Shown here: one piece after another, positions 220 to 4,804 of the stretch
Numbering within the stretch: the first letter of the stretch is position 1
Layout: every line of letters begins with the position of its first letter
DNA from: a virus
Taxonomy: Duplodnaviria > Heunggongvirae > Uroviricota > Caudoviricetes
DNA: 10,956 nt
Direction: 5' to 3' (one strand)
IMG/VR virus record: IMGVR_UViG_2541047722_000006
Translations under genes and position numbers: made by a program
Notes under the pieces: model-generated
Told to the model about the DNA's origin: nothing
Seen by the model: the letters and a program-made list of their open reading frames with translations, nothing else
The model's database searches: none

Positions 220-731
220 GCCCTGTTAACACTGCCACTGTTGGGCAACTTCAGAACCACTGTCTCACCGCATTATCTCAAGGCGCAACTGAATTAAATA
301 TCCATATATCAAGTCAGGGAGGGGAAACTGCTGCTGGCTTTACTGCGTATAACTTTCTTAAGTCACTCCCTGTTACCGTTAGAACTCACAACATAAGCAA
401 TGTTGAATCCATAGCTAATATCGTTTTCCTGGCTGGCTCAGAACGTTTCGCAAACCCATTATCAAGATTCCTGTTACATCCTCTATTATGGTGCTTTGCC
501 TCCCCAGCCGCCGACCATGCCAGATTGAGAGAGTACGGGAAATGCCTCGATAACGATCTTGATCGCTTCGTTGAGACGTTCAATATCGACATCGGAACCC
601 ATATTAGGTGGGCATCCCTGATAGCAGACTCGACCATTTTGGATGCTAACAAGGCTCTTGAGCATGGCATAATTAATTCCATAAAAACTGCAAGGCTGGC
701 ATCCAATCAGGCAAACTGGTGGGTTGTTTGA
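220..731 (+). pseudogene. ClpP-like (peptidase S14 fold) serine protease gene, 5' end removed or interrupted by IS629
   Basis: The plus frame is open with no stop from the IS629 junction (220) to TGA at 729-731. The translation (...NIHYSSGGETAAGFTAYNFLKSLPVTVRTHNISNVESIANIVFLAGSERFANPLSRFLLHPLL...IADSTILDANKALEHGIINSIK) aligns by eye with E. coli ClpP ([63 protein letters not shown]...[21 protein letters not shown]). Candidate Ser/His/Asp positions are present. There is no in-frame start between the junction and the TTG at 525, and about 40 or more N-terminal residues expected from ClpP are missing. Confidence 0.55.
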
Positions 732-756: not shown

Positions 757-778
757 AAAAAACCCACCTGACGGTGGG
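757..778 (-). terminator. Rho-independent terminator of the 188-aa/YafO-like operon (possibly bidirectional)
   Basis: Hairpin CCCACC-tgac-GGTGGG (763-778) directly after the YafO-like stop codon (780-782); on the minus strand it is followed by TTTTTTAT (762-755). On the plus strand only TTT follows. Confidence 0.55.
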
Positions 779-779
779 T

Positions 780-1229
780 TTAGTCAAACATAGTGTTTCT
801 AAAGTCTCTCGCATACCCTGCTAACACTCTCATTCTATTATGATTGTTAGCAGACATGTGAGCTACAGGATGAAAAAGAGCAATCAATGAATACCTGTTC
901 TCATCAAAAAGATTTTGTGCATAAACGAGAGCGGTATTGGATGTTTTATGCCACTGCAACTTTTGCGGTGTGCTGATATCTGTGCCATTTTTTATTGGCT
1001 CAAATTTATTTTCACCAATTGCTAAATGAAGGTGCATAAGGCCTGCATCTTCAATATCAGGAGGTCGATGATAAGAGGTGTCTCTGCCAAAATAGCTGGG
1101 CAACGTTCCCGTAGACTTGTAGATGATAAAATCATCTACAAGTGTTTGTTTTAAATCAGGAAACTCAACAAAAACCGGGGAGAAAAAATAGTCAAAACTA
1201 TCCTGATTATATTCCACGGTTACTTGCAT
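780..1229 (-). CDS. YafO-family toxin-like protein (type II TA toxin family, ribosome-dependent mRNA interferase), 149 aa
   Basis: ATG at 1229 preceded by GAGGT plus a 5-nt spacer, 8 nt after the stop of the upstream gene. The translation shares the motifs I recall from E. coli YafO: DFIIYKSTGTLPSYFGRD (YafO DFISYKRDGVLPDTFGRD), HLHLA (HIHLA), ALVYAQNLFDE (HLVYCQGAFDE), and a C-terminal AHMSANNHNRMRVLAGYARDFR (HKLARDNNQMHKIGKMAEAFR). AT-rich. Confidence 0.7.
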   Translation of the reverse strand: MQVTVEYNQDSFDYFFSPVFVEFPDLKQTLVDDFIIYKSTGTLPSYFGRDTSYHRPPDIEDAGLMHLHLAIGENKFEPIKNGTDISTPQKLQWHKTSNTALVYAQNLFDENRYSLIALFHPVAHMSANNHNRMRVLAGYARDFRNTMFD

Positions 1230-1237
1230 GTTTTACC

Positions 1238-1804
1238 TCAGTGGAAGTTACCAGAGTGAAACACACGAGTCCCGTGCTCAGCAAGCGCACGCAAACCAGC
1301 CATATCTACGGAACTATCAAAAACAACCGGAACACATGAGCGTTGTTTAATAAGACTATTCAGGTTGGTTACGGCAGATCTGGCATCAGCAACAACGATA
1401 TAGATATCTCTTGCGATCTCTTTAAAATCAGCAGAAGCTTCTTTGAATACCGATTTCATTGCCCCTTCAAGTCCTCTCAATTGATGCTCTATCAATCGAG
1501 ACTTTTCTGGTTCAATGATAGACAACACATTGTCTACATTCTCATCGGTAGCGTTTGCAAGAACACGATAAGCGTATTTCAGCATTCGAGACAATTCTTT
1601 AATCGAAGACACCGCCTCATGAAGCTCATCATTAGCCCGTTCACTGCTGAATGAGGATTGATGGTAAGCGTGCTGAACGTTATCAGTAACAACCACCTCA
1701 CAACTGAACGCAGAAGCTTGCTGTAATAGCAAACCTATTGCGACTCCAGCTTTGGCAGCGTTCAAGCTAAACATTTCATCAATCCCATTAGTCTCATTGC
1801 TCAT
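1238..1804 (-). CDS. Hypothetical 188-aa protein, first gene of the operon with the YafO-like toxin; no family recognised
   Basis: ATG at 1804 is preceded by a perfect AAGGAGG Shine-Dalgarno with a 5-nt spacer. The ORF track's longer 198-aa version starts at a TTG (1834) without a ribosome-binding site. The protein looks mostly helical, with no HTH or catalytic motif I can recognise, and is not YafN/Phd-like. Confidence 0.65.
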   Translation of the reverse strand: MSNETNGIDEMFSLNAAKAGVAIGLLLQQASAFSCEVVVTDNVQHAYHQSSFSSERANDELHEAVSSIKELSRMLKYAYRVLANATDENVDNVLSIIEPEKSRLIEHQLRGLEGAMKSVFKEASADFKEIARDIYIVVADARSAVTNLNSLIKQRSCVPVVFDSSVDMAGLRALAEHGTRVFHSGNFH

Positions 1805-1871
1805 ACAAACCTCCTTCTTATCGGAGATTATCAATAGCTATGCATCCATTGAATACACGCTATGCGCAATA

Positions 1872-1900
1872 AGTTTACGTCACGTGATATCATTATGCAA
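1872..1900 (-). promoter_or_regulatory. Putative sigma70 promoter of the 188-aa/YafO-like operon with an embedded palindromic operator candidate
   Basis: On the minus strand: TTGCAT (1900-1895), 17-nt spacer, TAAACT (1877-1872), about 65 nt upstream of the ATG at 1804. The spacer contains the perfect 8-bp palindrome TCACGTGA (1880-1887). Prediction by eye only. Confidence 0.3.
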
Positions 1901-3494: not shown

Positions 3495-3548
3495 TGAACC
3501 GCCCCGGGAATCCTGGAGACTAAACTTCCTGAGAAAGAGGTAAACAGG

Positions 3549-3875
3549 ATGACTAAAAATACTCGTTTTTCCCCCGAAGTCCGTCAACGGGCAGTCCGTA
3601 TGGTTCTGGAAAGTCAGAGCGAATATGACTCACAATGGGCGACAATTTGTTCCATTGCTCCAAAGATTGGCTGTACGCCGGAGACTCTGCGTGTCTGGGT
3701 TCGCCAGCATGAGCGGGATACCGGGGGCGGTGATGGAGGGCTCACCACCGCTGAACGTCAGCGTCTGAAAGAGCTGGAACGTGAAAATCGTGAACTGCGC
3801 CGCAGTAACGATATCCTTCGCCAGGCTTCCGCTTATTTTGCGAAGGCGGAGTTCGACCGCCTCTGGAAAAAATGA
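3549..3875 (+). CDS. IS629 transposase OrfA (108 aa, HTH DNA-binding part)
   Basis: ATG at 3549 preceded by AGAGGT. The protein has the leucine-zipper-like C-terminus ([29 protein letters not shown]) typical of IS3-family OrfA. Confidence 0.9.
3867..3873 (+). promoter_or_regulatory. Putative programmed -1 ribosomal frameshift site (A6 run) for the OrfAB fusion transposase
   Basis: AAAAAA at 3867-3872 lies at the end of orfA, just before its TGA (3873-3875); orfB begins in the -1 frame at 3872. IS3-family elements are known to make a fused OrfAB transposase by -1 slippage. Confidence 0.5.
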
Positions 3876-4762
3876 TGCCACTGCTGGATAAGCTGCGTGA
3901 GCAGTACGGGGTCGGACCGCTATGCAGCGAACTGCATATTGCCCCGTCAACGTATTACCACTGTCAGCAACAGCGACATCATCCGGATAAACGCAGTGCC
4001 CGTGCGCAGCGCGATGACTGGCTGAAGAAAGAGATACAGCGCGTATACGATGAAAATCACAAGGTATACGGTGTGCGTAAAGTCTGGCGTCAGTTGTTAC
4101 GGGAAGGTATCAGAGTGGCCAGATGCACTGTGGCACGTCTCATGGCGGTTATGGGACTTGCCGGTGTTCTCCGGGGTAAAAAGGTCCGTACGACCATCAG
4201 CCGGAAAGCCGTTGCCGCAGGCGACCGCGTAAACCGTCAGTTCGTGGCAGAACGACCTGACCAGCTGTGGGTGGCTGATTTTACTTACGTCAGCACATGG
4301 CGGGGCTTCGTCTATGTGGCGTTCATCATTGATGTGTTTGCCGGATACATCGTGGGGTGGCGGGTCTCATCGTCCATGGAAACGACATTCGTGCTGGATG
4401 CACTGGAGCAGGCGTTATGGGCCCGTCGACCGTCCGGCACGGTCCATCACAGTGATAAAGGTTCTCAGTATGTATCGCTGGCCTACACACAGCGGCTTAA
4501 GGAAGCCGGATTACTGGCATCAACAGGAAGTACAGGCGACTCGTATGACAACGCGATGGCGGAGAGCATCAATGGTCTTTACAAAGCGGAGGTAATACAC
4601 CGTAAGAGCTGGAAAAACCGTGCAGAAGTGGAACTGGCCACACTCACGTGGGTGGACTGGTATAACAATCGACGATTGCTGGAAAGGCTGGGCCATACTC
4701 CTCCGGCAGAAGCAGAAAAAGCTTATTATGCTTCCATCGGAAACGATGATCTGGCAGCCTGA
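3872..4762 (+). CDS. IS629 transposase OrfB (DDE/RNase H-fold catalytic part, 296 aa); expressed mainly as an OrfAB fusion spanning 3549-4762
   Basis: ORF in the -1 frame relative to orfA, overlapping it by 4 nt. Contains motifs of an IS3-family integrase core (WVADFTYV...HHSDKGSQY...[15 protein letters not shown]). Confidence 0.9.
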
Positions 4763-4804
4763 GTTCACAGATAAAACACTCTCCAGGAAACCCGGGGCGG
4801 TTCA

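Follow-up and report, generated by a model that had tools for sequence, protein, structure and literature searches.

The stretch of viral DNA analysed here, called the window below, is 10,956 nucleotides (nt) long (IMG/VR virus record IMGVR_UViG_2541047722_000006, Caudoviricetes) and derives from a P22-like prophage of Escherichia coli that lies at tRNA-Arg beside intS and carries an acyltransferase and a long tailspike. Two adjacent minus-strand genes within it encode a protein of 188 amino acids (aa), referred to as the partner, and a 149-aa protein of the YafO toxin family. Our comparisons indicate that the two form a phage-borne cassette, in which a distinct YafO subtype is joined to a partner family that had previously not been annotated. 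The features of the cassette are the following:

1872-1900, minus strand: promoter-like site, with a -35 element TTGCAT (1900-1895), a 17-nt spacer and a -10 element TAAACT (1877-1872)
1805-1979, no strand assigned: conserved divergent intergenic region, containing the promoter and two near-identical, outward-facing ribosome-binding sites (AAGGAGGTTnGTrTGA)
1238-1804, minus strand: partner gene, 188 aa, start codon ATG 1804-1802, within an open reading frame spanning 1238-1834
1230-1240, minus strand: coupling junction TGAGGTAAAAC, where the ribosome-binding site of the toxin is overlapped by the stop codon of the partner
780-1229, minus strand: toxin gene, 149 aa, YafO family within the RelE/ParE superfamily, presumed mRNA endoribonuclease
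757-781, minus strand: intrinsic terminator, with a 9-bp G+C-rich stem (AAACCCACC/GGUGGGUUU), a 4-nt loop and a U run, overlapping the toxin stop codon

An earlier reading, made from the sequence alone, had described two minus-strand genes 8 nt apart with good Shine-Dalgarno sequences, and both the list of open reading frames and the sequence agree with this. A strong ribosome-binding site (AAGGAGG, 1816-1810) lies ahead of the partner start codon (ATG 1804-1802), and 8 nt separate the partner stop codon (TGA, 1240-1238) from the toxin ATG at 1229. The junction sequence, cacTGAGGTaaaacATG, places the GAGG ribosome-binding site of the toxin on the stop codon of the partner. This arrangement recurs in relatives as the motif cacTGAGGTnnnnn(A/T)TG (TGA-GG): an 8-nt gap is present in 20 of 38 distinct junctions, most of these 20 having the motif. 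In many relatives the toxin start codon, 8 nt past the partner TGA, is TTG (loci L018-L021, L023, L027, L051, L113 and L115), the window having ATG, and such TTG starts suggest that the toxin is deliberately made at a low level. The recurring junction and the TTG starts are together consistent with coupled translation yielding less toxin than partner.

The clean terminator previously proposed downstream of the pair is also present, as a 9-bp stem followed by a U run at 781-757 with a centroid energy of -14.9 kcal/mol, and the identical hairpin sequence carries a terminator annotation in Salmonella phage Emek. It was missed by an automatic scan because the stem takes up part of the T run. The promoter claim can be retained only in part, as TTGCAT-17-TAAACT is indeed found at the indicated place but is weak, agreeing with the consensus at 7 of 12 positions and falling under the threshold of a promoter scan. 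What makes it credible is its conservation, since four relatives from Salmonella and metagenomes, with proteins no more than 55-65% identical, retain TTGCAn-17-TAnACT as well as the blocks on either side of it. The divergent intergenic region as a whole aligns with that of relatives at a mean column identity of 82%, and it is bounded by an inverted repeat (1801-1816 and 1968-1983, 88% complementary). On its far side, each relative has a different and unrelated gene (75-297 aa; loci L002, L003, L005 and L006), so that, judging from the alignment, the region resembles a constant regulatory hub beside a slot for exchangeable cargo genes. A sequence scan found no LexA box near the module, implying that the cassette is not under SOS control, unlike dinB-yafNOP. 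Its G+C content is 38-42%, compared to 46-52% in the flanking structural genes. The sequence features support the view that the two genes are coupled in one operon, with a promoter and a terminator of its own.

Profile searches upheld the assignment of the 149-aa protein to the YafO family. It matches the Pfam model PF13957 (YafO_toxin) with 78.9 bits (cut-off 25, E=3.4e-22) over profile positions 3-101 of 101, and is 38% identical to YafO of E. coli K-12 over 120 residues (E=7e-20). When seven phage-type and three YafN-associated YafO proteins were aligned, the invariant residues were, in the numbering of the 149-aa protein, D33, F34, P44, F47, G48, D50, Y53, H66, H68, L101, Y103, H124, A127, M133 and A140; the protein has thus lost nothing that the family shares with K-12 YafO, for which toxicity has been demonstrated by experiment. 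With the NCBIfam model for YafO (NF007377), the score of 79 bits lies below the equivalog cut-off of 153, which marks the protein as a distinct YafO subtype, and proteins of this phage subtype are extended at the N-terminus and carry an insertion past the HxH motif. A search of PDB sequences returned no solved YafO structure. Family PF_YafO has been placed in the RelE/ParE superfamily, with the antitoxin gene preceding the toxin gene (2025 review, PMC11980606). As far as homology can tell, the 149-aa protein is a YafO-family toxin and presumably an mRNA endoribonuclease.

The 188-aa partner is of a different kind. Searches of Pfam, NCBIfam, PADLOC and PDB gave no significant match for it, and it is assigned to phrog_8416 (PHROG 8416), a family listed with function unknown. 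The sequence-only reading had pictured a helical protein unlike YafN and devoid of a helix-turn-helix (HTH) domain. This description holds: comparison of the partner profile with YafN by hhalign gave a probability of 0.6%, profile scans found no DNA-binding domain, and the AlphaFold2 (AF2) model predicts a helical bundle with a predicted local distance difference test (pLDDT) score of 73 overall and of about 90 for most of residues 61-150. The model starts with an N-terminal helix (16-38), followed by a low-confidence linker (36-53, pLDDT <50) that is probably disordered, and fold searches with it returned generic helical matches only. The protein can be divided as follows:

Residues 19-35: hydrophobic segment (AGVAIGLLLQQASAFSC)
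Residues 36-53: variable linker
Residues 54-188: conserved helical domain

Conserved features of the partner are an LRGLEG-like motif (R110, E113), A-x-ARSA (A141, R142), Q154, S164, L171 and L174, and many family members end with F-H. When 1.8 billion representatives were searched exhaustively with a profile, only 23 clusters of relatives emerged, nearly all of 167-190 aa, and every source that names a relative among these clusters calls it a "hypothetical protein"; the homologues that are paired with YafO have 167-205 aa. Known antitoxin domains, including Panacea/DUF4065, Phd/YefM, ribbon-helix-helix (RHH) and HTH, were not matched by the partner. Kinship with ZorA2, indicated by a weak PADLOC match (E=0.004) to a coiled-coil tail, was rejected, as the match was not repeated across the family. 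By these profile comparisons, the partner represents a previously unannotated family that replaces the Phd/YefM-type YafN.

The strongest indication that the two proteins belong together is the consistency with which their genes are found side by side. We collected about 100 loci, representing 26 distinct pairs at 95% identity, from phages, prophages and phage-plasmids of Enterobacterales and Pseudomonadales. When viral contigs were scanned with the partner as seed, a YafO gene lay directly downstream in 19 of 19 loci. The reverse scan, seeded with the toxin, kept 80 loci (79 of them new) and found the partner upstream in all 66 that had upstream sequence, the other 13 ending exactly at a contig edge. 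A toxin-seeded scan of bacterial contigs, with one genome per species, found the partner at 16 of 20 loci, distributed as follows:

Serratia, Enterobacter, Pluralibacter, Buttiauxella, Photorhabdus, Xenorhabdus, Pantoea, Phytobacter, Stutzerimonas and two metagenome-assembled genomes: 16 partner-bearing loci

Three of the remaining bacterial loci, from two Colwellia-group species and Marinospirillum, have a Phd/YefM-type YafN of 95-99 aa together with a short YafO, and it is solely with this short subtype that YafN-type partners were found. The last one (L128, Photorhabdus sp. CRCIA-P01, 2942-3318) is decayed and retains fragments of the partner, with its signal-like N-terminus, and of the toxin; it is the sole locus where the pair is not intact. 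Neither the phage-type toxin gene nor the partner gene was seen intact on its own in the viral and bacterial scans. With its tightly coupled bicistronic operon and its obligate co-occurrence (19/19, 66/66, 16/20), the pair shows this general trait of type II toxin-antitoxin (TA) systems.

In the clade to which the window belongs, the partner is followed by YafO with an 8-nt gap every time, in P22-like prophages of Salmonella and E. coli, so that the pair is kept together in the very group for which a survey had been proposed. Beyond this clade, the pair was found at the following places:

Lambda-like phage HK639: in the tail-gene cluster
Pseudomonas phages D14L and YMC11/02/R656: near int/cI
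ECOR phage PhiR40_1: at the left end
Klebsiella phage-plasmid pJN2-26: on the plasmid

The cassette is a mobile moron that occupies different sites in unrelated temperate elements. A partner profile built from the window's clade matches the upstream genes in HK639 (3e-42), PhiR40_1 (5e-14), D14L (9e-13) and YMC11/02/R656 (9e-10), and weakly that in pJN2-26 (1e-3); judged by these matches, the upstream genes of all clades form one partner family. Among the 26 representative pairs, 98% of 325 comparisons showed lower identity for the partner than for the toxin, with means of 33% and 48%, respectively, and the divergences of the two proteins were correlated (r=0.87), an indirect hint that the partner may bind and neutralise the toxin directly. 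A neutraliser that evolves faster than its toxin is the usual pattern for antitoxins. Pairing that is both obligate and widespread makes a good comparative case for joint action of the two proteins.

The position of the pair within its prophage was likewise as anticipated, namely that of a moron past the ejection genes of a P22-like element. We take the prophage layout to be that of the K1 prophage CUS-3, an identification made from the context in E. coli S88. On the minus strand of S88, the ejection genes 7, 20 and 16 are followed by a small, oppositely oriented gene, the pair (first the 188-aa gene, then YafO) and a ClpP-like gene, and then by mnt/arc/ant, the tailspike, the acyltransferase, intS and tRNA-Arg. 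The corresponding interval of P22 reads gene 16, sieA (on the opposite strand), ORF59a, mnt, arc, ant and gene 9, and comparison of the two gene orders places the pair between the sieA slot and immI. The module was found at at least 99% identity, and with both genes every time, in 55 of 5426 complete E. coli genomes. The median is one copy per genome, and a strain of extraintestinal pathogenic E. coli (ExPEC), XM (NZ_CP025328.1), has three copies of the 1-kb module.

Of several possible explanations for this cassette, we favour, as somewhat more probable than the contrary, a self-contained moron of the TA type that consists of a YafO-family endoribonuclease and a new family of helical antitoxins. 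The promoter and terminator of its own, the translational coupling, the gene order, the faster evolution of the upstream gene, the co-occurrence and the varied insertion sites all fit a cassette of this type. Expression from the resident prophage is probable. Translational coupling would ensure that the partner is made first, probably in excess, and the partner would then, most likely, keep the toxin inactive in the lysogen, presumably by direct neutralisation. If the partner were not replenished, or were displaced, the toxin would be freed and, on the toxicity that we infer from its family, would stop translation by cutting mRNA, resulting in arrest of the cell. Such release might follow when an infecting phage silences the genes of the host, when the element is lost or upon an envelope event. 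As to the benefit for the element, its place beside sieA and immI speaks for abortive infection or exclusion of other phages, and its presence on phage-plasmids and survival in a decaying prophage speak for retention of the element.

Several observations weigh against a module of this type. No PADLOC-DB v2 model significantly matches the proteins of the window, nor did 25 partner homologues (apart from one stray match, E=6e-4) or 10 toxins give a significant match in that collection; the same check bears out the earlier suspicion that the partner is not a known defence component, for the window pair and its homologues alike. Literature searches found no experimental study of this pair, and the study of P22 SieA that includes CUS-3 does not mention the YafO and partner genes (PMC10883804). 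The AF2 model of the toxin is of a confidence (pLDDT 53, predicted template modelling score 0.40) too low to bear out a BECR/RelE-like fold or an active site. In 24 of 26 representatives the phage-type YafO is acidic, with an isoelectric point of 5.0-6.5, which is uncommon in ribosome-binding or RNA-binding toxins of the RelE superfamily. No HTH, RHH, AbrB or Phd domain was detected in the 13 members of the partner family that were scanned, and with no DNA-binding domain in the partner, classic type II autoregulation is unlikely. The description of the partner as "unrecognised" is correct with respect to Pfam, NCBIfam, PADLOC and PDB but has to be weakened for annotation labels, as the homologue in the GenBank record of PhiR40_1 is labelled "YafM antitoxin"; "YafO/YafM" is also listed as a TA pair, again as an annotation label, in a Pectobacterium pangenome paper (PMC10991766).

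The alternative that survives best is a plain addiction or stability module, which would act by post-segregational killing when the prophage or phage-plasmid is lost and would have no role against other phages. We consider this rather improbable as the full explanation. Klebsiella phage-plasmids, which need maintenance functions, do carry the cassette, the decaying and insertion-ridden prophage of the window keeps both genes intact (at least 99% identity in 55 genomes), and it has already been noted that no defence model matches. Most carriers, however, are integrated prophages, for which segregational loss is less of a problem, and the cassette resides among superinfection-exclusion and immunity genes. 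In addition, many prophage TA modules have proved to be abortive-infection systems. None of these three counter-arguments is decisive.

A further objection to a simple antitoxin comes from the N-terminus of the partner, which in most clades has 1-3 basic residues, then 15-27 uncharged and mostly hydrophobic residues, and an A-x-A-like (small-x-small) motif. Such a start resembles a Sec signal peptide, whose marks are a positive n-region, an h-region of 7-15 hydrophobic residues and a small-x-small cleavage site. Signal-like segments of this kind, called by a heuristic analysis of hydropathy and charge, occur in several separate clades (with a slash marking the end of the segment: MNPFNAITFAALCGPLACPAAMA/QE, MNLSLRNCLAVVLFGGVLSVPSFSA/GY, MKMNPLLKHCFAAILSGGILSVPSYSLA/DV and MARTKVPFSKVAMLSLALSVSTSCAQLAAA/TP), where they end in PAAMA/QE, PSFSA/GY, YSLA/DV and LAAA/TP. 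The signal-like segment is followed there by a variable low-confidence linker and then by the conserved domain. Hydropathy maxima in 19-residue windows range from 0.7 to 1.7 (mostly 1.0-1.7), values that look more like those of cleavable signals than of membrane anchors. If the partner is indeed exported, simple sequestering of a cytoplasmic toxin would be impossible.

These segments form the basis of another alternative, in which the partner is exported or tethered to the membrane, so that a cytoplasmic RNase would be under envelope-linked control, or in which the precursor is an antitoxin made short-lived by Sec export. We regard this as unlikely. It has in its favour the occurrence of signal-peptide-like N-termini in several separate clades, the variable and probably disordered linker that leads to a folded domain, the hydropathy maxima near those of cleavable signals, and the proximity of the cassette to the sieA slot, home of envelope-acting exclusion genes. 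The signal-peptide call is heuristic, however, and the clade of the window shows only a weak version of the segment: AGVAIGLLLQQASA/FSC is shorter than its counterparts, with an h-region of 9 residues (AGVAIGLLL), and although ASA/F is present, the n-region contains an acidic N-terminal extension of 10 residues and has a net charge of -2. Moreover, GLL[L/M]QQ is far more conserved in this clade than is usual for signal peptides, which points to a binding role, and the N-terminal segment may here be a binding element instead. We know of no precedent for an exported antitoxin of a RelE-superfamily toxin. Should the partner nevertheless be secretory or membrane-targeted, for which we see little probability, the neutraliser might be removed by Sec export rather than by proteolysis, or be located at the envelope, coupling toxin release to membrane events such as the injection of phage DNA.

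That the pair is not a TA system at all, but a YafO-like RNase serving the phage life cycle (for example mRNA turnover at induction) with an accessory partner, or a toxin whose true antidote lies elsewhere, for instance in a host factor or a small RNA, we consider highly unlikely. In favour of this view, the toxicity of the 149-aa protein is a prediction, the toxins are acidic, unlike most ribosome-dependent relatives, and the partner shows none of the domains that typify known antitoxins. Against it, the 149-aa protein has every residue that is invariant among YafO proteins, the experimentally toxic one of K-12 included; a neutralising partner would be expected to show just such strict co-occurrence, and translational coupling to a toxin gene with a weak start codon; and the cassette has its own promoter and terminator, stands outside the logic of the lytic operon and occupies different sites in different phages. 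Nor do Rfam and repeat searches offer an RNA family or tandem repeat that would fit an RNA antitoxin. An RNA antitoxin or type III-like repeats were rejected on these negative searches, in which the terminator hairpin alone gave matches.

Among the known systems that come close to the TA-type cassette that we favour is yafN-yafO of E. coli K-12, a type II TA module of the dinB operon. Both have homologous toxins with FGRD, HxH, LVY and P-x-x-H motifs in common, as well as tight spacing and the order of neutraliser followed by toxin. The phage partner, however, is twice as long as the approximately 97-aa, Phd/YefM-type YafN, is all-helical and is unrelated to it, while the phage toxin differs by its longer N-terminus, the insertion after HxH and its sub-equivalog score. 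In contrast to dinB-yafN-yafO-yafP, the phage cassette is without a LexA box and without dinB and yafP, and its neighbours are phage genes.

Replacement of an antitoxin is not in itself exceptional, as type II TA modules are reportedly hyperpromiscuous, with one toxin family combined with unrelated antitoxin families (work attributed to Leplae et al. 2011 and Ernits et al. 2023). The phage cassette resembles such mix-and-match modules in its RelE/ParE-superfamily toxin, its different and faster-evolving upstream neutraliser and its carriage on mobile elements. It differs from them in that the partner matches no known antitoxin domain and has a signal-peptide-like N-terminus. With swapping of antitoxin families being well known, we see the finding as a known toxin family joined to a new, unannotated partner family, in a distinct phage-borne subtype.

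Among phage morons, those of the P22 sieA and gene 16-mnt region (Leavitt et al. 2024, PMC10883804) share with the cassette the slot, the character of a unit (probably) expressed by the prophage with its own promoter and terminator, and the low G+C content. There is no sequence similarity to SieA, however, and a two-gene RNase cassette contrasts with a single inner-membrane protein that blocks DNA entry; furthermore, the actual position and orientation of sieA are taken in the window by a gene for a 116-aa membrane protein (1980-2330). A conceptual likeness, and only that, exists to toxin-antitoxin-chaperone (TAC) systems of the HigBAC type (PMC11980606), which also have a RelE-superfamily RNase on a mobile element and a release that is possibly linked to secretion. 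In TAC systems this link is a SecB-like chaperone, while the phage cassette has the signal-like segment, with two genes rather than three and no gene for such a chaperone.

In the textbook picture, YafO belongs to a single chromosomal SOS operon, yafNO, and it is among the least understood toxins of the RelE superfamily. The loci sampled here reveal a second YafO subtype, carried by phages, prophages and phage-plasmids and always accompanied by a different, unannotated partner. Prophage surveys in Pseudomonas aeruginosa score the toxin as an orphan YafO (PMC10449497), which we attribute to the lack of annotation for the partner family. Recognition of this family would correct such orphan annotations and would add an antitoxin family to TA and defence catalogues. 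The cassette is also a small and easily cloned candidate for work on phage defence or prophage stability in the clinically important ExPEC K1 strains. If the signal-like N-terminus is functional, the question arises how an exported or membrane-bound protein could control a cytoplasmic RNase, and if an export or envelope mechanism were true, it would represent a new logic of TA-toxin control within the superinfection-exclusion slot of temperate phages.

The surroundings of the pair deserve a few remarks of their own. The 116-aa protein encoded at 1980-2330 on the plus strand is a predicted multi-pass membrane protein in the same position and orientation as P22 sieA; its probable start is the GTG at 1980, behind AAGGAGG, the RefSeq start being at 2001. 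It showed no similarity to SieA, no match in a phage collection and no family match. The gene is a candidate for a superinfection-exclusion gene in its own right. A three-gene system that would include this divergent membrane gene was rejected, as relatives have unrelated genes at that position and other phages have none. On the other side, a ClpP-like gene (222-731, plus strand; 11546-12082 in locus L001), annotated as ATP-dependent Clp protease proteolytic subunit and encoding 179 aa in S88, comes after a repressor gene of the mnt type and is transcribed towards the YafO terminator from the other side. Its product was considered as the protease acting on the antitoxin of the module, and dismissed, since the gene is missing both in the Salmonella relatives and around the pair in the other phages.

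The prophage of the window has also been invaded by insertion sequences (IS). An IS3-family element of 1310 bp (3495-4804), which is presumably IS629-like, interrupts the ejection-protein gene 16; it has orfA at 3549-3875, orfB at 3872-4762 and terminal inverted repeats of 25 bp. A second copy in opposite orientation, extending from position 1 to about 219, truncates the ClpP-like gene, and the two inverted copies flank a 3.3-kb segment with the YafO module in an arrangement that resembles a composite transposon. E. coli S88 and ATCC 11775 are without either insertion. For a few strains (Eco_23-2678, MS20673 and SCU-116), alignment to the window gives three pieces that run across both of the IS ends, which makes it likely that these strains share the double-IS arrangement.

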